DNA of 12,823 nucleotides from a virus: the UHGV virus genome UHGV-1339911. The stretch is one strand, 5' to 3'. The position numbers and the translations under genes are program-made. The notes beneath the pieces are model-generated. The model was given only the letters and a program-made list of their open reading frames with translations, did not search any database and was not told the origin of the DNA. Of this stretch, positions 1 to 12,090 are shown in pieces. How positions within the stretch are numbered: position 1 is the stretch's first letter; each line of letters opens with the position of its first letter.

Positions 1-1272
1 AACGCCAGACAGGTCGAGACAGCAAAGCCAAAAGAGAAAACCTACAAAATGGCCGATGGCGGCGGTTTGTATCTCGAGGTTTCGGCTAAGGGTTCTAAAT
101 ACTGGCGCATGAAATACAGACGCCCCTCTGACAAAAAAGAGGATCGCCTCGCTTTTGGTGTTTGGCCCATGGTGACACTTGCTCAGGCAAGAGCAAAGCG
201 TGACGAGGCTAAAAAGCTCTTAGTGCAGGGCATTGACCCAAAAGCCGAGCAGAAAGAAGCTCAGGCTGAGAATTCGGGCGCATACACTTTCGAAACAATT
301 GCTCGTGAATGGCATGCCAGTAATAAGCGCTGGAGTGAAGACCATCGATCACGCGTTCTGCGCTATCTTGAGCTTTATATTTTTCCTCATATCGGTTCGT
401 CCGACATTCGGCAGCTTAAAACCAGCCACCTGTTAGCCCCGATTAAAAAAGTTGATGCCAGTGGCAAACACGATGTCGCTCAGCGCCTGCAACAGCGCGT
501 CACGGCCATTATGCGTTATGCCGTACAGAACGATTACATCGACTCTAATCCAGCCAGTGACATGGCCGGTGCGTTATCTACAACCAAAGCACGACACTAT
601 CCGGCTTTACCCTCTAGCCGCTTCCCTGAGTTTCTTGCACGTCTTGCTGCATATCGTGGCCGTGTAATGACAAGGATCGCGGTCGAGCTTTCCTTACTAA
701 CTTTTGTACGTTCCAGTGAGTTACGTTTCGCGCGATGGGATGAGTTCGACTTCGATAAATCTCTTTGGCGTATACCTGCAAAGCGAGAAGAAATTAAAGG
801 CGTGCGTTACTCGTATCGTGGCATGAAGATGAAAGAGGAGCATATCGTTCCTCTTAGTCGACAGGCGATGGTTTTGTTAGAGCAACTCAAGCAGATTAGT
901 GGCGATAAAGAGTTACTTTTTCCAGGAGATCACGACTCAACAAAGGTTATGAGTGAAAACACGGTAAACAGCGCATTGCGTGCGATGGGCTATGACACGA
1001 AAATTGAAGTTTGCGGGCATGGATTTAGAACGATGGCTCGTGGTGCGTTGGGTGAGTCAGGTTTGTGGAGTGATGATGCAATTGAGCGTCAATTGAGTCA
1101 CTCTGAGCGTAATAATGTGCGTGCAGCTTATATCCATACTTCTGAGCATTTGGATGAACGTCGTTTAATGGTGCAGTGGTGGGCAGATTTTCTTGATGCA
1201 AATAAAATTGAATTAATATCACCTTTTGATTACGGAAAGACGGTAATATTAAATGAAAACACCCAGCAATAG
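1..1272 (+). CDS. int: P4-family tyrosine recombinase (integrase), 5' end truncated by the window edge
   Basis: ORF track 49..1272, but the frame is open from base 1 with no stop before the ATG at 49, so the true N-terminus lies upstream. N-terminal KxYK-x-DGGGLYLEV-(x8)-W-R-x-K-YR motif is typical of P4-like integrases. C-terminal catalytic signatures HGFRTMARGAL (His-x-x-Arg) and RAAYIHT (Tyr) are present. Stop TAG at 1270-1272. Confidence 0.9.
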   Translation, partial: NARQVETAKPKEKTYKMADGGGLYLEVSAKGSKYWRMKYRRPSDKKEDRLAFGVWPMVTLAQARAKRDEAKKLLVQGIDPKAEQKEAQAENSGAYTFETIAREWHASNKRWSEDHRSRVLRYLELYIFPHIGSSDIRQLKTSHLLAPIKKVDASGKHDVAQRLQQRVTAIMRYAVQNDYIDSNPASDMAGALSTTKARHYPALPSSRFPEFLARLAAYRGRVMTRIAVELSLLTFVRSSELRFARWDEFDFDKSLWRIPAKREEIKGVRYSYRGMKMKEEHIVPLSRQAMVLLEQLKQISGDKELLFPGDHDSTKVMSENTVNSALRAMGYDTKIEVCGHGFRTMARGALGESGLWSDDAIERQLSHSERNNVRAAYIHTSEHLDERRLMVQWWADFLDANKIELISPFDYGKTVILNENTQQ

Positions 1273-1292: not shown

Positions 1293-4200
1293 TTAAATGT
1301 GATTATCCCATTCATTTTTTATTTCGTCGAATTCATTTTTAGAATTGCACATTTTTTCCCATTCCTGAATTATATTTGGTTGTACAATACCTAGACGTTT
1401 GTTGTTGCAATAAATAGATGCTGCTAATTTTGTCGCGCTAAGTTTTTTTTCTAGATAGCTTAAGTGGTCATTATTGTTAATAAATTCTTTCCCATCCTCG
1501 AATAATAGGCCAGTTAAACCGCAATGAATTTTATTCATAAACTCATCAGAAATTGTAAAATCGCTAGAGCTTATTATAAACCTGACTAAATCATAGCATT
1601 CAGGAAGACATGGATCACGATTCCAGGCTATTTTTTCACTAAGTATTGTGATAATTTCTGGTGGGTACTCTTTATTTCTTATTAGTACATATACAGAGTT
1701 TATTGCTTCAATGACTTCTGTTTTAATGAAACTATATAACCCAGAACCTATATCTTTTAATAGGTCGCTTGAATGGTTCTTTTGATTCATTAAAAGCATA
1801 GTTAGTGCAGAATTTACAGGGATTCCTGATTTTTTCATCTTTTCTATCAAGTTTGTAATATGAATAATTGATTCACTATTCAATTTATTATAGTGGATTT
1901 CTAAAATTGTAGTGATAATTCTTGTTATGTTTTTAAATCTATGTGTAAATTCTTTTGATAAATCGTCCCGTTTCTCAAGCCAAATTTTATCATTGGAAAA
2001 CCACTTATTCATTTCAGATATGATCTCAGATAAGATAGTTTCGGACGGGGTTATATGATGAAGGGCACCATTAAGTTCGTTACAATAATTGTCGTTACCA
2101 CCTGTTATAGTAACGCTATTACCATTTTGAATAGGAAAATTATATGTTTTTATAATGGAAATAAATTTATCCTGAATATTTTCATTTTCAGGGTGAAGGT
2201 TATCTATAAAGAAAAATCTATAGTAACCACTATTAATTGGAAATCCATATTCATCGCGTTTAGCCCATAGGTTTTTTATTAGTTTTGAAATATCAGACTT
2301 GTTAAGTAGATCAAGATTATACAATGTAATTAACTTTTGTGATGCTGCTTTTCTTAAATCTTGATCTTCGCTTTTTAAATCATCAATATCTTTTCTGATT
2401 TTGGAAGATGTTATTTTTTTCAATAAACCATTAGGTCGTTTGATAATTGAAGCCAGTAGACATTCAAAAGGAGTAATAAAATTATATTTTTGACCCATAC
2501 CTAAATGATCATTAGAGGGTTTCGACGGATAATCGATAAAAATATCTATGAGGGATATTTTTTGAGAGTCATTCATACTCGCTATAGTACGTCTAAGCAA
2601 ATCCTTTGTCTCAGCAAAATCATAAAACCCCTCAGAGTTATATAACTTAAGAAGAAGGGTTATTATATCTTTTTTCTTTTCAAAAGAAACTTTTGTTACT
2701 AGTCTTGATAATATTTCAGGAATGATTGATAGGGTGGATAACTCTATTTCAAGCTTATCGCTAAGTCTTTCATCTATTTTTTTTAAGATGATTTGTTCGT
2801 ACTTTTTGAAGTATCCATCAAATAAATCTTCAACTTTTTTTCTTTCTAATAAAGAGAGTCTACCACGGTTAAAAAGACTTTTTGCTTTATCTTTATTAAA
2901 TGTTCTAAATATTGCAAAAATAGCGAATTCAGGGGAGTATGGATATATATGTCGGGATGCGTTTTCAACTATGCCACTAAAAATATTCATTCCAGGTATA
3001 TGGAAAGGCAGTCCAAGTTCTTCTGCTAGCAATAGAAAGTTGAAAGCATCTAAGGATTTAAGTTCCGCGGGACTCCCACCAAAATAAGTTGTCACAGTTC
3101 TTCTGTTAAGATCAAAATCAGTATCCTTTGAATTCTCAGATATACCTTGTGGGGATTCTAGTTTGATTTCTAAATACTTAATTTCGTTTTCTGGATCGCT
3201 ACGATATTGAGATAAAGTTGCTAATCTAGAATTGTATTCTGAAGTGTAATCATCGTTCTTGTTATTATTTTTCAAGCTTCTCTTGAACATTCTTAATATA
3301 TAAATGCAATAAGCTTCTTGGGACTCACTTGAATAGTCGATGTTCCTTGATGATAAAAGACTATTTCGGCGAATAGTTGATAAAGTTTCTTCAAGAAGAT
3401 TAATGGCTTCATCGAGCATGCCAAACTCAGCAAGTAGTCCCGCTCTTTTAATTTCATACTGTGGAAGAAGTTTATTTGTTTCCCAATTTGAAAGTTTTGT
3501 TCTGGCTTCATCAAAGTTCAATCTAAAATAAGAATGTAGGATATTCTCGTAATAGAATTCAGATTTAACTTCTGGAGTTAGTCTTTCTAAATTGGGAATC
3601 AGTAAATGATTTAATTCTTTCCATTTTGCTGTGAGATTCTCTTGGCGACAAAATTTCATTAAATTAATAACGATGGCTGAATATTTATCATCCAGATCTT
3701 TGTTTATTATGTTGTTAGTGTATTCGTCTTTATATTTTTCTGTGAGTTTAAATAAAAACTCTGCTGTGTCATTAAATATAGGTAGTAATGCTTTATTTAA
3801 TCGCCAAGTTAACTCATAACCAAAATTAATTTCTGCATATTTTTCCCAAATCACATCGTAGGTAACTACTGCCAACCACTCTCTAGTATCACGCCAAAGA
3901 TTACTGCGATTAGATTCAGGCAAAATAAGCCAGTTAGGATAAGATTTTCTTAATGATCCCCACTCAATAATGCATCGATTTATTTTTTCCATTTTTATTT
4001 CAGGGGTGTCATCGAAAGAAATGTGTTCTCGATTTTTTATTATTGGCCACTCTATTAAATTTTCTTTGTTTTTTGTTTCGTAGAGGGACTCTATAAAATG
4101 TTGATGAGCTAAATAATGATCTTTGCCAAAGTCCCCAAGTAAACTCAAGTCCACGATTGATATGTTTCTTTTTTCAAGCAATTTGCGCTGTGCTTCATTG

Positions 4201-4922
4201 AATGAGAAAAGACCTATCAGATAAATTTTTGGTGAGTTTTCTGCTCCAAGATTATCTCTTATCCAGCCAATCCAGTTAAGGAAATTAGGATCATCACCAG
4301 AAAAACCAATCAAACAAAGAGTATTTTCAATGAGTGATTGCTGTACTGTATTTACAAATGGTGAGTTATCTAAAGGATATTTCCTGTAATCTTCTTCAGT
4401 AATTATAAAAGGCCGCTCTGATGGGAAGCTTCCGTGAAGTTTGATGATCCTAGGTCTTTCAGCATTCATCAAATCACTTTTATTCAGTACCACATCATAT
4501 TTTCTGGAGTCAACATATACACATGCACGCTCAAGCAACGTGTCATAGTTAGTTGTAAAAACATCAACCCATGGTAACGATAAAAGAGAGATGTGTAATT
4601 TAGATGGTTCATACTCTTTATCAGGAACATGATCCATTATCAACTTATCAAGTGTTGCACGGCCGAAGGCGGCTTGTACCTCATCGCCAAGTTTGAGTAC
4701 ATTTAAATATTTGTTTAAATTTTTCTCACAGTAAATATTTTCATAAAAAATATCGCCTAAATCATTCCACATTGGGAATTGTCGTGCCTTGTTTGTTAAA
4801 GGTTTTGCATTTCGACTAAATCCAGCACCAATGAGTATTGCTGCGCGACCATCCCAAAGGCGAGATGATATATTATTTAATAGCGGTTTGATTTTTTTCT
4901 TATTTGTCATTATATATTCCAT
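1293..4922 (-). CDS. Large SIR2-domain fusion protein (defence-associated sirtuin / DSR-like); candidate single-gene NAD-depleting anti-phage protein with an unassigned ~950-aa C-terminal region
   Basis: Uninterrupted 1209-aa ORF. N-terminal ~260 aa carry SIR2_2-type motifs in canonical order: AAILIGAGFS (aa 27-36), VFTTNYDTLLE (aa 121-131, putative catalytic Asn125), IIKLHGS (aa 159-165, putative catalytic His163), CLIGFSGDDPNF (aa 203-214). No Walker A/P-loop seen anywhere in the protein. Gene is visibly AT-rich compared with its neighbours and lies between int and the late operon. Start-codon choice (M1 at 4920-4922 vs M5) is uncertain; no strong SD for either. Confidence 0.8.
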   Translation of the reverse strand: MEYIMTNKKKIKPLLNNISSRLWDGRAAILIGAGFSRNAKPLTNKARQFPMWNDLGDIFYENIYCEKNLNKYLNVLKLGDEVQAAFGRATLDKLIMDHVPDKEYEPSKLHISLLSLPWVDVFTTNYDTLLERACVYVDSRKYDVVLNKSDLMNAERPRIIKLHGSFPSERPFIITEEDYRKYPLDNSPFVNTVQQSLIENTLCLIGFSGDDPNFLNWIGWIRDNLGAENSPKIYLIGLFSFNEAQRKLLEKRNISIVDLSLLGDFGKDHYLAHQHFIESLYETKNKENLIEWPIIKNREHISFDDTPEIKMEKINRCIIEWGSLRKSYPNWLILPESNRSNLWRDTREWLAVVTYDVIWEKYAEINFGYELTWRLNKALLPIFNDTAEFLFKLTEKYKDEYTNNIINKDLDDKYSAIVINLMKFCRQENLTAKWKELNHLLIPNLERLTPEVKSEFYYENILHSYFRLNFDEARTKLSNWETNKLLPQYEIKRAGLLAEFGMLDEAINLLEETLSTIRRNSLLSSRNIDYSSESQEAYCIYILRMFKRSLKNNNKNDDYTSEYNSRLATLSQYRSDPENEIKYLEIKLESPQGISENSKDTDFDLNRRTVTTYFGGSPAELKSLDAFNFLLLAEELGLPFHIPGMNIFSGIVENASRHIYPYSPEFAIFAIFRTFNKDKAKSLFNRGRLSLLERKKVEDLFDGYFKKYEQIILKKIDERLSDKLEIELSTLSIIPEILSRLVTKVSFEKKKDIITLLLKLYNSEGFYDFAETKDLLRRTIASMNDSQKISLIDIFIDYPSKPSNDHLGMGQKYNFITPFECLLASIIKRPNGLLKKITSSKIRKDIDDLKSEDQDLRKAASQKLITLYNLDLLNKSDISKLIKNLWAKRDEYGFPINSGYYRFFFIDNLHPENENIQDKFISIIKTYNFPIQNGNSVTITGGNDNYCNELNGALHHITPSETILSEIISEMNKWFSNDKIWLEKRDDLSKEFTHRFKNITRIITTILEIHYNKLNSESIIHITNLIEKMKKSGIPVNSALTMLLMNQKNHSSDLLKDIGSGLYSFIKTEVIEAINSVYVLIRNKEYPPEIITILSEKIAWNRDPCLPECYDLVRFIISSSDFTISDEFMNKIHCGLTGLLFEDGKEFINNNDHLSYLEKKLSATKLAASIYCNNKRLGIVQPNIIQEWEKMCNSKNEFDEIKNEWDNHI

Positions 4923-5628: not shown

Positions 5629-5901
5629 TCAGACAGGAATTTGCTGACGGCTTGACAGCTTTGACGCGGAGCCATAGCGGTTGAGAGTTTGCTGTTGTTT
5701 TTCAGGCATTTGTGCTTTGTCTGATTCCCGTTCATTGCGCCAAGGCTTCATAATTATCGTATCCACGCTTTCCAGAGCGGTAAATGTGCAGGAACATTCC
5801 AGATTCTGGCACTGATACCATGAGCGTTTAACCGATGGAGCTTCATAGGCACTGGTTCTGGCGTGAGCGACCGTCCCACATTCAGGACACTTCAGGGCCA
5901 T
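5629..5901 (-). CDS. ogr: Ogr/Delta-family zinc-finger late-gene transcriptional activator (single Ogr-like unit, 91 aa)
   Basis: MALKCPECGTVAHARTS...YQCQNLECSCTF...ESV matches the Ogr/Delta Cys4 zinc-finger signature (C-x2-C ... AHARTS ... QCQN-x2-C). I place the start at the internal ATG 5899-5901, which has a strong SD (AAGGAGG about 8 nt upstream) and sits immediately after the psu stop; the ORF-track start at 6003 overlaps psu and lacks an SD. Confidence 0.85.
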   Translation of the reverse strand: MALKCPECGTVAHARTSAYEAPSVKRSWYQCQNLECSCTFTALESVDTIIMKPWRNERESDKAQMPEKQQQTLNRYGSASKLSSRQQIPV

Positions 5902-5902
5902 A

Positions 5903-6457
5903 TCAGTACCCTCCTTTTTCATTAAGTCGGTTAAGGCGGGCCAGGAAAACTTTATGTTGTGCTGGGGTGAAACTGGCTGAAGCATCAGCGCACATTGATG
6001 CATCCACCGTTAATCCGGTTTCGTCGATAATGCTCTTGTATGCTGCTGAAATTACCGGAGTACGCACTTCCGTTTGTCGGGCTACAGCGGTTCGTAATAT
6101 TTTCATTGCCGCCTCAAGCCCGTATGGAGCGCAAAGAAAAGGAGCCAGAGCGTCAGTGAGTGCATCACCATGCTCGCTCATGAAGTTTTCCGTTGCGCTT
6201 GTAACACAACTCTCCAGCACAATCTGGTGAGCATAAAGACCATCCCGTGCAGCACAGTTAATCTGCCATTCGAGGACTGCAAGACGCTCACGAAGATCCT
6301 CAAGCTGGCTGGCATATGCTGCCAGTTTTTCTTCAGTATCCAGCAGAGCCGCCAGACGAAGCTGGCAGGTACTTTGCGTATTACGTAGTGTCAGCCAGCT
6401 TTTTATCGCCGAGCGGTAATCGTTGAGTGCTTCCTGAGTAATGCTTCCGGCATTCAT
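5903..6457 (-). CDS. psu: Psu-like protein (polarity suppression / capsid decoration protein of P4-type satellites)
   Basis: 184 aa. Segments FMSEHGDALTDALAPFL and the C-terminal FTPAQHKVF resemble P4 Psu as I recall it (FMQQHGTALAAALAPEL, FTPAQNMIF). Start overlaps the sid stop (ATGA), implying translational coupling. Confidence 0.75.
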   Translation of the reverse strand: MNAGSITQEALNDYRSAIKSWLTLRNTQSTCQLRLAALLDTEEKLAAYASQLEDLRERLAVLEWQINCAARDGLYAHQIVLESCVTSATENFMSEHGDALTDALAPFLCAPYGLEAAMKILRTAVARQTEVRTPVISAAYKSIIDETGLTVDASMCADASASFTPAQHKVFLARLNRLNEKGGY

Positions 6458-7206
6458 TTCTTCTCGCCCCCTTTAACCATGTCACGCTGTTTAAGCATCC
6501 GTGAACGCGCTGCAGGGCTGGGGGATTGTCTGGCATCTTGGATGGCTTTATCGTCCGCATAAATGCTGATCCCCGGCAGGGTAATATCATCCGTTGAAGA
6601 TACGTTACAGGACAGTGCCGGAGTGGTGAGTTGCTCGCTGATAAATTGCTTCAGCACACTTTCGGGGTCGTTTACGGTATGAACTACACCGATAACAGCA
6701 GAAGCGCTTCGGCCCAGAGTCATTTTCAGCAGTCCAAGGATCTGAATAAGTTTCTGGCCGTGTTCCTTCATAAACTCATTCCAGAGCCACACTGCATGAG
6801 TTTCAATCAGGCGATTATGCTCACTGATGTAGTGGTTTGCAGCATCCGCAGTTTTCCAGGGCAGGAATTCATTTTCTGCCGCCTGAGCTGCCAGCAAATC
6901 TTCGAACTCATCCAGTGTTTCGCGTCCGAGGGCGATTTCTGCCCGCAGTTTTTTCATGCGTGGCGTCATATTTCCCTGATTCTCACGAAACAGGTTTCGC
7001 CATTCATCATTAAGCGCCTGCGTTTCCGTTTTTGTATCTTCCTGACGTTTACGGATAGTTTCAATCATTGCAGCAGCTTCAGTTTGTTTTCGCCGTTCTT
7101 CCTGCCAGACAGCTTTTGCTACCTTAACTTTATCCACCGCTTCGCGAATTTTCGGTGGGAGGGAGGGTGTAATGTTTGCATCAGGGATCTGGTTAACAGT
7201 AGTCAT
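6454..7206 (-). CDS. sid: Sid-like capsid size-determination (external scaffold) protein
   Basis: 250 aa, charged and helix-prone, first gene of the leftward operon, immediately upstream of psu and ogr/delta. Size and position match P4 Sid (~244 aa). Assignment is mainly from synteny and size; I cannot confirm sequence similarity without a search. GGAG lies 5 nt before the ATG. Confidence 0.6.
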   Translation of the reverse strand: MTTVNQIPDANITPSLPPKIREAVDKVKVAKAVWQEERRKQTEAAAMIETIRKRQEDTKTETQALNDEWRNLFRENQGNMTPRMKKLRAEIALGRETLDEFEDLLAAQAAENEFLPWKTADAANHYISEHNRLIETHAVWLWNEFMKEHGQKLIQILGLLKMTLGRSASAVIGVVHTVNDPESVLKQFISEQLTTPALSCNVSSTDDITLPGISIYADDKAIQDARQSPSPAARSRMLKQRDMVKGGEKK

Positions 7207-7278
7207 GACTGCTCCGGTAGTGTTTTATTGTCGTGTCAATTGTGCCGGTGCCCATACAAGCGCACTACCGAGGGGGAT

Positions 7279-7310
7279 TGTGCCAGTGACAGAACAATGA
7301 CCTTGTTCTG
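7279..7310 (-). promoter_or_regulatory. Candidate Ogr/Delta-activated late promoter element (TGT-N12-ACA dyad) overlapping an 8-bp palindrome, upstream of sid
   Basis: TGT (7279-7281)-N12-ACA (7294-7296) matches the activator-site consensus described for P2/P4 late promoters. Its centre is about 80 bp upstream of the sid ATG, compatible with a site centred near -55 and a short leader. Adjacent perfect palindrome CAGAACAA-tgacc-TTGTTCTG at 7290-7310. Confidence 0.45.
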
Positions 7311-7360
7311 GCTAGCCAGAGAAATGCGTCATGTCTGATCTTCAACTTTCCTTTAATACA

Positions 7361-7580
7361 TACTATTCACTACTGTTCACTTTGATAAAAAAATTGATAA
7401 TACAGCTAGTTAAGAGGTGAAGGGTTGACAAGGCAGTATTCAGTGACTGTTCATGAGTGTTCATCGGAAGGCTGCGTGATTTATGATTTTTTTTCATCAA
7501 AAGTGAAATTTTTATTCCTAATGATTATTTTATTATTGTTCCTCACAACTATTCACCACTCTTCAGTAGTATTCAACAGA
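7361..7580. repeat. Array of iteron-like octamers related to TGTTCACC (ori-like) in the AT-rich control region
   Basis: TATTCACT 7364-7371 and TGTTCACT 7374-7381 (10-bp phasing); TGTTCATG 7448-7455 and TGTTCATC 7458-7465 (10-bp phasing); TTCACC at 7552-7557 and on the minus strand at 7416-7421. No ORF of 60 aa or more in 7339-8060 on this strand. Confidence 0.4.
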
Positions 7581-8118
7581 TGATGAAATAGACGATTTTT
7601 CTTTGCCGGGAAATAACATGATTCCCCCTTTTCCTGGTGTTGCATTTCAATCTGATTTTTATAAAACTAGAACTGTTCGGTCTTTTATGAATTTATTTGT
7701 ATATATTTTTAGGTTAAGAATGCGTGGTTATTGATTTTATGCGGTTTTAATGCTTCTGAGCTTGATGCAATTCATGAGTATATCCTGAAGTTAGGTTTGC
7801 AATGTAAAACCATATGTAGAAATTGTGCACCCCTGCTGAATGGGTTGCGGTTTCAGTACCATTAAGTTCTATGACTTATGGGGTAGTAACCCCTGGATGA
7901 AAGTTAGTTCCTATTAATGCCCCTGTATTTATAGTTCGCAGGCATAATATTTATCATGCCATTTTATGTGGTTTGATATAGTTTTAAATTCCATTAAATC
8001 AATATGTGACACTAAATAAATAATGGGTGCGTAAGCGAGCAATATATACATAATAAGGAGCTACCTGAATCCGGGGGGATTTATCCGGACTGATGAAGGA
8101 ATTAAAGAGGGTAGATAA

Positions 8119-8379
8119 ATGCATGATATTTCTGTTTCTGCGCCAGCTCCGGCTGCGCCATTATTTCCTGTGCTGAACCAGCATGAGCGATTTTTACGTC
8201 TTCCCGAGGTGATGCATTTATGCGGCTTGTCCCGCTCAACTATATACGACCTGATAAGCCGCGATGCTTTCCCGAAGCAGATCCCGCTTGGTGGTAAAAA
8301 TGTTGCCTGGGCACAGTCAGAGGTAAGCGCATGGATGGCGGATCGTATAAGTGCCCGCGGACGGGGATGTGATGCATAA
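8119..8379 (+). CDS. alpA: AlpA/Vis-family phage DNA-binding regulator (excisionase-like HTH)
   Basis: 86 aa. [53 protein letters not shown] is the typical AlpA/Vis helix-turn-helix core. SD GAGGG sits 7 nt upstream of the ATG. Confidence 0.85.
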
Positions 8380-8473
8380 TGATGCCTGAACGCATTAATC
8401 CCCTTTTTTCTGGCTTGCATCCTGCAGTCATTTCCAGGTATAGTTTTCCCGCTGCCGCAAAATCGGCTGCCGG

Positions 8474-8725
8474 GCGTAGGAACCCGAGTTACTTATTGGC
8501 GACACCAGACGCGCCGTGCGTCTTTTTTTACGTCGTTGCTCAGGCACACCCATTTTTCGGGCTGCGGTGCTTATACCTTAGTCCCTGTCAGATAATGGTG
8601 GTCCGGGCGGGGCAGCCTTCGGGCTGGCCGGTTTCCAATAAGGCCGGTATTCCTACCCCCGTCTGGGCTACCACCCATGAGCGTAGGAACTCCGGTGGTG
8701 GCATTTACCGCGACTTATTGGAGGT
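8474..8725 (+). promoter_or_regulatory. Candidate P4 CI-RNA-like immunity leader (seqA / seqB / seqC-like complementary repeats)
   Basis: Direct repeats GCGTAGGAAC...ACTTATTGG at 8474-8499 and 8681-8721. Between them, 8635-8658 (CCAATAAGGCCGGTATTCCTACCC) is approximately their reverse complement. The second direct repeat overlaps the GGAGG SD of the downstream small gene. The region is GC-rich and its conceptual translation (first ~118 aa of ORF 8379..8924) is low-complexity. Confidence 0.35.
8507..8529 (+). terminator. Intrinsic terminator-like hairpin plus T7 tract inside the alpA-downstream leader
   Basis: Stem AGACGC / GCGTCT (8507-8512 and 8518-8523), loop GCCGT, followed by 7 T (8523-8529). 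Lies inside the ORF-track ORF 8379..8924, arguing against that ORF's 5' part being translated. Confidence 0.5.
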
Positions 8726-8732
8726 TGCCCTT

Positions 8733-8924
8733 ATGGCTACGATCCTCGCCCCTTCACATCCTCAATTTATATTTGTTTTTGCCGCCGTTCGTCGTGCAGA
8801 ACGTAAACCACGTATCAGTATGCTGCGTATCGTCGCCAGCAATGAGCATCATGCACGTCTTTCACTGGTCCATGAGTATGTGCTTTGCCTTGCTGCTCGC
8901 CTGCCTGTCCGGGAGGTGATGTGA
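8733..8924 (+). CDS. Small early-operon protein, possibly Icd-like (host cell division inhibitor family)
   Basis: 63-aa short form starting at ATG 8733 with GGAGG 8 nt upstream ([63 protein letters not shown]). The C-terminal ...ARLPV... pattern resembles Icd-like proteins of P4-type elements as I recall them. Family assignment is tentative. Confidence 0.45.
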
Positions 8925-9145
8925 TGAATCACGCCGCAATCTCTTATGACGATATTGTCCGCCTGAAGCATCTTCGTAACGTGGGGGAGTTTGTCACCGG
9001 AATGGCTGTTCTTCAGGATTGCTACGAAAAACCTGCCGGTGCTCAATGTGAGCAACTGGCTTCCCTGATTTATCTGATGACAGAGCAACTTGATGGCGTG
9101 GTACAGCGTTGCCAGGATGACCTGATGAACATGGAGGTGGTGTAA
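8924..9145 (+). CDS. Hypothetical small protein (73 aa), early operon
   Basis: Start ATG 8924 overlaps the upstream stop (ATGA) with GGGAGG 7 nt upstream. Placed at [10 protein letters not shown] rather than the ORF-track start at 8885, which lacks an SD. No recognisable domain. Confidence 0.55.
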
Positions 9146-9474
9146 TGAAATCACGCACCCTTTCCCTTTCCCTTTCACTTCGGGTAGCGTTGTATCGCCG
9201 CGCGGTAGCCTGCGCCTGGTTGAGTGCCTGCTATCAGCAAAACCGCCATCTGCAGCTCACTCTGGATGAAATTGAAACCGCTATTGCCCGTGAGCTTGAA
9301 GGATTTTATCTGCGACAGCACGGGCAAACAAAAGGCATGGAAATCGCCTGCGCTCTGCTTTCAGACCTGATGGAATCCGGCCCTCTAATGTCCTGTCCCG
9401 CACTCTCCCAGCTCGGAATAGCCGTAATGGATGAGTTATGCGTCCGTCACATCAAAAAGCCGGTTTTACACTGA
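9145..9474 (+). CDS. Hypothetical small protein (109 aa), early operon, immediately upstream of the primase gene
   Basis: Start overlaps the previous stop (TAATG) with GGAGGTGG upstream. Position is analogous to the small genes preceding alpha in P4, but homology was not verified. Confidence 0.55.
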
Positions 9475-9488
9475 GGGAGAACTGCGTC

Positions 9489-11819
9489 ATGTCAGGAATG
9501 AAAGTCAGTCAGGCCGTGAAGGCTGCCCGCGGTCACTGGGCTAAGATTCTGCCAGCGCTGGGCGTGAATATATTGAAAAATCGCCATCAGCCTTGCCCGG
9601 TCTGTGGCGGTAAAGATCGTTTTCGCTTCGACGATCAGGAAGGACGCGGAACATGGTTCTGCAATCAGTGCGGTGCCGGGGATGGTATAGCGCTTGTCAC
9701 CAGGGCACTGAATGTGGATATCAGTGAAGCAGCTGACAGGATACATGGACTGACACATGGTCTGTCTGTAGTTAATTCCGAAGTCAGGGCGTTAACCGCC
9801 GATACCGATAGCGGGAAAGATGCAGCAGCACTTGCCGCGCGACTGCTGCAAGCCTCACGTGAATCTGCCGGAAACACTTATCTTACACATAAAGGTTTCC
9901 CGGAGCATATTTGCCATGAGCTGACTTCAGCTCATAAAACCGGTGGGGTGATGTTCCGCCCCGGTGATTTGATCGTCCCGCTCTATAACGCTGACGGGGA
10001 GCTGGTGAATATTCAGCTTATCAGTGGCAATGGTAGCAAGTGTTTTCTTAAAGGAGGTCAGGTTAAGGAGGCCTATCATCTGATAGAAGGGGGCGGGAGT
10101 TCTTTAAGAAGGATGTGGATTGCGGAAGGTTACGCCACGGCGCTTACCATTCATCATCTGACAGGAGAAGCCGTCATGGTGGCATTTTCGTCGGTCAACT
10201 TTCTTTCTCTGGCCAGCGTTGCCCATAACAAGTATCCGGGATATCAGTTAATTATTGCAGCGGACCGCGATCTGAATGGTTCAGGCCAGAACAGGGCTGA
10301 AACTGCTGCAAAAGCGTGTCAGTGTGACATTGTGCTGCCACCGGTTTTTGGTGACTGGAATGATGCGCTTACCCAATACGGAGAGGAATCCACCCGGAAG
10401 GCAATTCTTGAGGCTTTGAAGCCACATAATGCCAGTCCTTTCGACACAATGAGTGAAGCAGAATTCACAGCGATGAGTGTCAGCGAAAAAGCTCAGAGGG
10501 TTCGGGAGCATTACAGGGATGCACTGGCGGTTGATCCGAACGGGCAGCTTTTATCCCGCTACGAGTCTGGAGCGTGGAAAGTGATTTCTCAGTCAGATTT
10601 TTCCCGAGATGTCGCAGCCCTTTTCCAGCGCCTCGGTGCACCGTTTTCCTCAGGAAAAATTGCCTCACTGGTGGAAACATTAAAGTTAATTGTTCCGCAG
10701 CAGCAAAATCCGGCACGTCATCTGATTGGTTTTCGTAATGGCGTCCTCGATACGCGAACAGGGCTTTTTAGTCCGCACTGTAAAGAGAACTGGCTGCGTA
10801 CCCTGTGTGAAGTCGATTTCACGCCACCGGTAAAGGGGGAAACGCTTGAAACTCATGCCCCGGCATTCTGGCGCTGGCTGGACCGGGCTGCCGGACACAA
10901 GCCAGCTAAACGCGACATTATTCTTGCGGCGTTATTTATGGTGCTGGCGAACCGCTATGACTGGCAGCTCTTTCTGGAAGTGACTGGCCCTGGTGGAAGT
11001 GGCAAAAGTATTCTGGCTGAAATTGCGACCATGCTTGCTGGAGAGGATAACGCCACCTCTGCGACCATTGAAACGCTGGAGTCCCCGCGAGAACGTGCGG
11101 CTCTGATAGGTTTTTCTCTTATTCGCCTGCCTGATCAGGAGAAGTGGAGCGGCGACGGCGCCGGGCTTAAGGCTATAACTGGTGGCGATGCGGTATCGGT
11201 GGACCCCAAGTATCAGAATGCTTATTCAACACATATTCCGGCGGTTATCCTGGCCGTAAATAATAATCCTATGCGCTTCACTGATCGTAGTGGTGGTGTG
11301 TCCCGCAGGAGAGTGATTCTGCATTTTCCTGAGCAGATAGCACCGGAAGAACGCGATCCGCAGCTGAAAGATAAAATTGCTCGAGAACTGGCTGTGATTG
11401 TTCGCCAGCTCATGCAGCGTTTCAGCGATCCGATGAGCGCCAGAACATTGCTTCAGTCGCAGCAGAATTCAGATGAGGCTCTCACCATCAAGCGTGATGC
11501 TGATCCAGCATTTGATTTTTGTGGCTATCTTGAGGCATTACCTGACACCAACGGTATGTTTATGGGGAACGCTAATATTGTCCCACGCCAGCCACGTACC
11601 TACCTTTACCATGCCTACCTCGTATACATGGAGGCTAATGGCTATAAAAACATCCTGAGTCTTACGATGTTTGGCAAAGGGTTGCCAGTCATGCTGAAGG
11701 AGTACGGGCTACATTATGAGAAACGGCGAACTAATCAGGGAATGCAAACTAACCTCACTTTGAAAGAGGAGAGTAATGCAGACTGGCTGCCCAAGTGTGA
11801 TGAGCCAATATTAAAATAA
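9489..11819 (+). CDS. P4 alpha-type bifunctional DNA primase/helicase (zinc-binding primase domain, TOPRIM, P-loop helicase)
   Basis: Zn-finger CPVCGG...FCNQCG; TOPRIM-like acidic motifs (WIAEGYATALT, IIAADRD); Walker A VTGPGGSGKS. I prefer the start at ATG 9489 (MSGMKVSQ...), preceded by GAGGGAGA, over the ORF-track start at 9438. Confidence 0.9.
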   Translation: MSGMKVSQAVKAARGHWAKILPALGVNILKNRHQPCPVCGGKDRFRFDDQEGRGTWFCNQCGAGDGIALVTRALNVDISEAADRIHGLTHGLSVVNSEVRALTADTDSGKDAAALAARLLQASRESAGNTYLTHKGFPEHICHELTSAHKTGGVMFRPGDLIVPLYNADGELVNIQLISGNGSKCFLKGGQVKEAYHLIEGGGSSLRRMWIAEGYATALTIHHLTGEAVMVAFSSVNFLSLASVAHNKYPGYQLIIAADRDLNGSGQNRAETAAKACQCDIVLPPVFGDWNDALTQYGEESTRKAILEALKPHNASPFDTMSEAEFTAMSVSEKAQRVREHYRDALAVDPNGQLLSRYESGAWKVISQSDFSRDVAALFQRLGAPFSSGKIASLVETLKLIVPQQQNPARHLIGFRNGVLDTRTGLFSPHCKENWLRTLCEVDFTPPVKGETLETHAPAFWRWLDRAAGHKPAKRDIILAALFMVLANRYDWQLFLEVTGPGGSGKSILAEIATMLAGEDNATSATIETLESPRERAALIGFSLIRLPDQEKWSGDGAGLKAITGGDAVSVDPKYQNAYSTHIPAVILAVNNNPMRFTDRSGGVSRRRVILHFPEQIAPEERDPQLKDKIARELAVIVRQLMQRFSDPMSARTLLQSQQNSDEALTIKRDADPAFDFCGYLEALPDTNGMFMGNANIVPRQPRTYLYHAYLVYMEANGYKNILSLTMFGKGLPVMLKEYGLHYEKRRTNQGMQTNLTLKEESNADWLPKCDEPILK

Positions 11820-11877: not shown

Positions 11878-12090
11878 AGCTGTTCACTCTTCACCTAGCT
11901 GTTAACACATAATCAATTGATATATATGTAAAAAATTACAGGGTGAATAGTGTGCATGGTTTTGCGAAAAAAAAGTATTTTTTGTAGAGTCAAGTCCCGG
12001 TTTGGATCCGTTTAACGGAACCTAACTGGATTGACTATTTCTCTGAGAATTTTTGGATAAATAATCAACAAAAATCAAAATGTGAACAGA
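11878..12090. repeat. Iteron-like octamers (crr-like) downstream of the primase gene
   Basis: TGTTCACT 11881-11888, TTCACC 11890-11895, AGCTGTT duplicated at 11878-11884 and 11897-11903, GGTGAATA 11942-11949 (minus-strand TATTCACC), GTGAACA 12083-12089 (minus-strand TGTTCAC). An exact TGTTCACC also occurs further right at 12773-12780. Confidence 0.4.

Follow-up and report, generated by a model that had tools for sequence, protein, structure and literature searches.

A predicted two-site late promoter of the P4 Psid type upstream of sid in a P4-like satellite prophage of Escherichia coli

The DNA analysed here (12,823 nucleotides, hereafter the window) is a P4-like satellite prophage of E. coli. 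The sequence at 7279-7296 on its minus strand is very probably the upstream activator site, centred at about -55, of the late promoter of the sid-psu-delta operon. This promoter is predicted to be the orthologue of the P4 promoter Psid, activated by the Ogr protein of a helper phage or by the Delta protein of the element itself. The presence of a second dyad at 7241-7258 makes it, as judged from the sequence, a two-site promoter of the P4-Psid type.

The promoter is orthologous to a known and characterised type. It is thus an ordinary finding of low novelty, and the current understanding of the P4-like system is unchanged by it. What the result provides is the annotation of a helper-responsive late promoter in a common E. 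coli P4-like satellite. It also documents that all three sampled clades of P4-like satellites in Enterobacterales keep the two-site Psid layout, even where Delta has a single domain. The uses are in annotation, in the design of helper-inducible reporters and in P4-based delivery vectors.

Gene content of the satellite

In a DNA similarity search, the promoter region and the window were 100% identical to one E. coli chromosome. Similar sequence is present in 582 of 5426 complete E. coli genomes. Gene identities were assigned from Pfam scans. An integrase gene (int; 49-1272, plus strand) lies at one end of the window, followed by a gene on the minus strand (1293-4922) for a SIR2-like protein of 1209 aa that carries the SIR2-like domain at its N-terminus. 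The latter gene sits between the integrase and delta, a slot that is a known defence-system hotspot of P4-like satellites (PMC13586616).

The late operon is on the minus strand in the order sid-psu-delta. Its first gene is sid (6454-7206), coding for a 250-aa capsid size determination protein recognised by a Psu-family Pfam match. It is followed by psu, the polarity suppression gene (5903-6457; 184 aa; PF07455, E = 7e-35), and by delta, which codes for an Ogr/Delta zinc-finger protein of 90 aa (5629-5901; PF04606). The genes on the other side of the promoter region are on the plus strand and consist of an AlpA/Vis homologue (8119-8379) divergent from sid, an Ash-family ORF (8379-8924), a DUF5375 gene (9145-9474) and an alpha-type primase-helicase gene (9438-11819).

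Two Rfam matches exceeded the gathering score, isrK at 8451-8528 (72 bits) and C4 antisense RNA at 8591-8678 (82 bits). Both fall within the Ash/Icd-like ORF 3' of vis, and the segment is probably the P4-type RNA immunity region. Rfam and tRNA scans gave no match in 7207-8118. A 235-aa ORF with a TTG start (6631-7338, plus strand) runs antisense to sid and crosses the promoter region; it is almost certainly spurious.

Two predicted activator dyads and a single-domain Delta

The late promoters of P2 share the consensus TGT-N12-ACA and depend on Ogr, a zinc-finger protein with the motif CX2CX22CX4C (PMC3931495). Inverted repeats with centres near -55 are the binding sites of Ogr, which contacts the alpha subunit of RNA polymerase (PMC3152322). 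P4 genes including delta, psu and sid are trans-activated by Ogr, and Delta is an Ogr homologue (PMC7552001; PMC8628076).

Two exact matches to this consensus are found upstream of sid. Site I, the distal dyad (7279-7296, minus strand), reads TGTGCCAGTGACAGAACA, or TGTTCTGTCACTGGCACA in the sense of sid, and its centre at 7287.5 is 81.5 bp upstream of the sid ATG. Site II, the proximal dyad (7241-7258, minus strand; TGTATGGGCACCGGCACA in the sid sense), is nearer to sid, with its centre at 7249.5, 43.5 bp upstream of the ATG. The two centres are 38 bp apart. Both dyads are contained in a direct repeat, D2, of 21 nt with 76% identity and the same 38-bp spacing (ATTGTGCC.GTG.C...ACAA). Among 2000 shuffles of the window that preserved dinucleotides, the arrangement TGT-N12-ACA-N20-TGT-N12-ACA turned up once.

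The original prediction, made from the sequence of the window, had proposed an Ogr/Delta-type late promoter dyad at 7279-7296, at the right distance from the sid start. The sequence matches exactly, and the assignment as an activator site is supported by the same geometry in P4 and by dyad arms that are invariant among relatives. That picture was of a promoter with a single dyad; the distal site stands, and the proximal dyad at 7241-7258 had been missed.

The element also encodes a candidate activator. Its Delta has one cysteine motif of the form CX2CX22CX4C (C5-X2-C8-X22-C31-X4-C36) and is 49% identical to P2 Ogr over 51 residues. The protein aligns to each half of the two-domain P4 Delta, which has 166 aa. 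The earlier description of Delta as a single-domain protein is thus confirmed by its length of 90 aa, its one motif and its match to both halves of the P4 protein. The proposed tie of the late operon to a helper Ogr or to the element's own Delta is borne out as far as the sid-psu-delta operon and the cognate activator gene are concerned; the activation itself is a prediction.

Comparison with P4 Psid and the P2 late promoters

Alignment with P4 Psid and with the P2 late promoters had been proposed as a check of the promoter. For P4 the correspondence is close. Psid (NC_001609) has TGT-N12-ACA at 9493-9510 and 9531-9548, with centres at 9501.5 and 9539.5, 38 bp apart as in the window. The proximal centre is 43.5 bp from the P4 sid ATG (9583), the identical distance to that in the window (7249.5, with the ATG at 7206). 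ACAAT follows the proximal dyad in both. Psid drives sid, psu and delta, as its counterpart in the window would, and both adjoin an iteron-containing ori and diverge from vis.

This correspondence is one of position and motif. The promoter DNA of the two elements is too diverged for blastn, and a search of 6400-8500 against a phage collection matched only the vis region of P4; the comparison was therefore made by position and motif. The Sid proteins, aligned over their full length, are 22% identical. There are differences in organisation as well. The gene order is sid-psu-delta in the window and sid-delta-psu in P4, the 90-aa single-domain Delta of the window stands against the 166-aa two-domain protein of P4, and the sid-vis intergenic region is 912 bp in the window compared with 552 bp in P4.

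In the P2 record, the activator sites of PP, PO, PV and PF have their centres about 55-58 bp before the mapped starts, and site I falls in the same register if the hexamer CACAAT described below is the -10. In PO the TGT is at -64, a register equal to that of site I. The P2 late promoters resemble the promoter in the window in having no -35 consensus and an activator with a CX2CX22CX4C zinc finger. They differ in having a single site, whereas the window has two perfect ones. The four P2 promoters also match TGT-N12-ACA imperfectly, for example as TGT-N12-CCA, which means that TGT-N12-ACA is a consensus and not a strict rule.

Conservation across relatives

A set of 14 sid-anchored loci was gathered without reference to the motif. 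It consists of the window, P4, three E. coli sid loci found by DNA similarity and nine loci found by alignment of the Sid protein, the nine coming from records named Scandinavium, Pantoea, Citrobacter, Pseudocitrobacter, Enterobacter and Shigella. Both dyads are present in all 14, always 38 bp apart, with the distal centre at -79.5 to -82.5 and the proximal centre at -41.5 to -44.5 from the sid ATG. The TGT and ACA arms are invariant in every one of these loci and the N12 spacers vary between clades, the pattern expected of a dyad that is contacted by a protein.

Viral contigs of IMG/VR were searched with a pattern consisting of the double dyad followed by ATTGAC, which returned 58 stretches. 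A few of these are unrelated chance matches (e.g. L022 and L027). Because the IMG/VR loci were chosen for having both dyads, they provide no evidence for dyad conservation and were used only for the sequence upstream of the dyads.

Predicted core promoter and activation

The hexamer CACAAT (sid sense; 7239-7244, minus strand) overlaps the ACA arm of site II and is a plausible, though weak, candidate -10. Its plausibility comes from the ACAAT that directly follows site II or its counterpart in each of the 14 sid-anchored loci, P4 among them. This hexamer would place the start of the sid transcript at 7232 +/- 2 nt on the minus strand, giving a 26-nt leader with a GGAG Shine-Dalgarno sequence at 7212-7215. 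With CACAAT as the -10 and the start near 7232, the centre of site I would be at about -55.5 and that of site II at about -17.5, an argument that is partly circular. The placement of the dyads at -55 and -18 thus rests on the -10-like hexamer together with the likeness to P2 and P4. A scan of 7100-8200 found no sigma-70 consensus promoter upstream of sid, and the -35 position reads TAGTGC, with no -35 consensus. Both features fit an activator-dependent promoter.

By homology, the promoter would be silent alone and would fire when a P2-like helper brings Ogr or when the element's own 90-aa Delta builds up. The activator bound to site I would recruit RNA polymerase through the alpha subunit, and the transcript would begin some 26 nt before the sid ATG. 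Site II, situated between the -10 and -35 positions, probably tunes the output, as has been reported for P4. Julien and Calendar in 1995 and Reiter et al. in 1998 reportedly described two Delta sites in Psid, near -55 and -18, the second of which is said to modulate the promoter.

The proximal dyad and core promoter are flanked by a perfect 8-bp inverted repeat, CGGTAGTG / CACTACCG (7215-7222 and 7263-7270). The upstream copy (GGTAGTG) is kept in several clades and the downstream copy is found only in the clade of the window.

The palindrome overlapping site I

A perfect 8-bp inverted repeat with a 5-nt spacer, CAGAACAA-TGACC-TTGTTCTG, overlaps site I at 7290-7310, exactly as the original prediction had read it. 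Site I and this palindrome together lie 73-104 bp upstream of the sid ATG. The palindrome is most likely lineage-specific and incidental, its sequence pattern among relatives giving no sign of function. It is best explained as a by-product of two neighbours, the TTGT half-site of site I and the CCAGA of a conserved element, TCTGGCTAGCCAGA. In the sid sense the region reads TCTGGCTAGCCAGA-ACAAGGTCAT-TGTTCTG...ACA. The arm TTGTTCTG is made up of the TTGT half-site of site I and four spacer bases, and the arm CAGAACAA begins with the CAGA that ends the palindrome TCTGGCTAGCCAGA. The outer ACA of the 7290-7310 palindrome does not form a third Ogr dyad; 15 nt upstream of it the sequence is CTC, not TGT.

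In the alternative, the palindrome would be a clade-specific accessory operator to which a second regulator, a dimer, binds; the original prediction had named the divergently encoded Vis/AlpA homologue (8119-8379) as an example of a different regulator. A helper protein or a host factor is also a candidate, and whichever is bound would modulate access of the activator to site I. P4 Vis is said to modulate late promoters (Polo et al. in 1996). The overlap with site I would suit such a role, and so would the perfection of the repeat. Only about 0.013 perfect 8-bp inverted repeats are expected per 60 nt, which makes the palindrome mildly unusual locally, although it was noticed post hoc. Across the whole window such repeats, with spacers of 0-10 nt, are not enriched (6 versus 2.7 +/- 2.0 in shuffles).

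The evidence from relatives points away from an operator. The palindrome was tallied in the register of the window over 71 double-dyad loci. The arms CAGAACAA / TTGTTCTG, complementary at 8/8 positions, are found in six loci including the window. The variant TTGTTCAG occurs in 15 loci with arms complementary at 7/8, TTGTTTAG in two at 6/8 and CATAACAA in one at 7/8. The remaining 47 loci, from other clades including P4, have arms complementary at 5/8 at most. Most close relatives thus carry a mismatch that is uncompensated, and no compensatory changes in the arms were seen among the 71 loci. The palindrome is missing from P4 and from two other clades, and the largest clade has no dyad in its register. 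In favour of an operator, most loci of the window's clade retain the inner 6 bp of each arm (GAACAA/TTGTTC); however, with an identity of at least about 85% over the region in this clade, such retention says little.

At much the same position a sister clade carries another small dyad, AAAGA-NN-TCTTT, which could also be taken to favour an accessory operator; its variation falls in the spacer. In one locus of that kind (L030), 15 nt inserted between CTGGCTAGCC and the activator dyad interrupt the AAAGA/TCTTT dyad of its clade, from which it follows that the linker tolerates indels.

The number and form of the sites also argue against a regulator of the Vis type. No further copies of the palindrome were found near vis, near int or elsewhere in the window. 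Exact copies of TTGTTCTG number three in the window, two being the arms of the palindrome and one lying within the SIR2-like gene, and matches with one mismatch are at chance level (20 versus 13.7 +/- 4.3). Known operators of Vis, AlpA and Xis type are arrays of direct repeats one helical turn (about 10-11 bp) apart, of which copies would also be expected at att and at the promoters under control, whereas the feature in the window is a lone inverted repeat. Recombination directionality factors bind direct repeats at this helical-turn spacing, not inverted ones (PMC7498355, which counts the P4 Vis paper among the studies with these features). The palindrome is probably not a separate operator; the second-regulator reading of the original prediction is not supported, and an accessory site for a dimeric factor is unlikely.

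The palindrome was also considered as an intrinsic terminator and rejected; no T-run follows the hairpin and the terminator scan reports none there.

The 7307-7320 palindrome and the adjoining ori-like region

The element TCTGGCTAGCCAGA at 7307-7320 is a perfect palindrome of 14 bp and is better conserved than the one at 7290-7310. Every clade, P4 included, has kept its core, written (T)TTCTGGC(T) or TTTCTGGC(T), together with the palindromic GGCTAGCC that surrounds it. The form is CTGGCTTGCCGG in P4, CTGGCTCGCCAG in the relative L007 and CTGGCTGGCT-TTCAT-AGCC in the largest clade. The core is found at anything from 11 to 46 nt from site I, and so does not look like a part of the fixed geometry of the promoter. 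The element may belong to the origin or to something else.

An ori-like cluster of P4 type-I iterons, similar to GTGAACAGT and with 10-bp phasing, is present at 7361-7580 and adjoins the promoter as in P4. A search allowing up to one mismatch to the iteron gave matches at 7362-7556 and 11879-12090 (10 versus 2.1 expected). The two clusters correspond to the P4 ori, beside Psid, and to crr, the latter crr-like cluster being downstream of alpha.

The two overlapping dyads, TCTGGCTAGCCAGA at 7307-7320 and the palindrome at 7290-7310, could together form a composite operator for a putative dimeric factor in one clade, though this is improbable. If it were true, the factor would link late transcription from Psid with the replication origin next to it, and the TTTCTGGC(T) core would be its anchor.

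Another reading takes the 7290-7310 palindrome and TCTGGCTAGCCAGA as parts of the origin, where the alpha primase-helicase or a host replication factor would bind or unwind the DNA. The iteron cluster begins about 40 bp away, the annotated P4 ori covers the corresponding region, and a GAACA core is common to the palindrome arms and the type-I iteron GTGAACAGT. The variable spacing of the TTTCTGGC(T) core from site I likewise suggests a place outside the promoter geometry. On the other hand, the iteron search at up to one mismatch did not match 7290-7310, neither arm agreeing with the iteron to that degree, and the palindrome there is not conserved. An origin function for the pair is very unlikely, and we keep to the by-product explanation for the 7290-7310 palindrome.

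As for site I, the bare TGT-N12-ACA motif is not enriched, with 3 matches in the window versus 2.94 expected, two of the three directly upstream of sid. That site I is a functionless chance match is nevertheless extremely unlikely, since a number of matches expected of a window this size does not account for its pairing with a second dyad at the P4 spacing, its P4-like distance from sid, or arms that stay invariant in 14 of 14 sid-anchored loci across genera while the spacers diverge, and the comparative data contradict chance.

Related promoters in the satellites

In some satellites of the largest clade the double dyad, again with a 20-nt gap, recurs as a second promoter roughly 1.4 kb downstream of Psid and in the same orientation. 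It is found at 6811-6866 in L031, and also at 2485 in L036 and 3339 in L037. It is followed by an ORF starting MSELLTEKTES..., which resembles tail assembly proteins of the P2 gpE type.

The promoter upstream of vis (8005-8022) is the counterpart of P4 PLL. In the window its only dyad is degenerate, reading TGT-N12-ATA. The relatives L003-L006 also have a degenerate form, whereas in P4 and L007 it is a perfect TGT-N12-ACA. Judging from these sequences, the vis operon in the clade of the window may be under weaker Ogr/Delta control or none.
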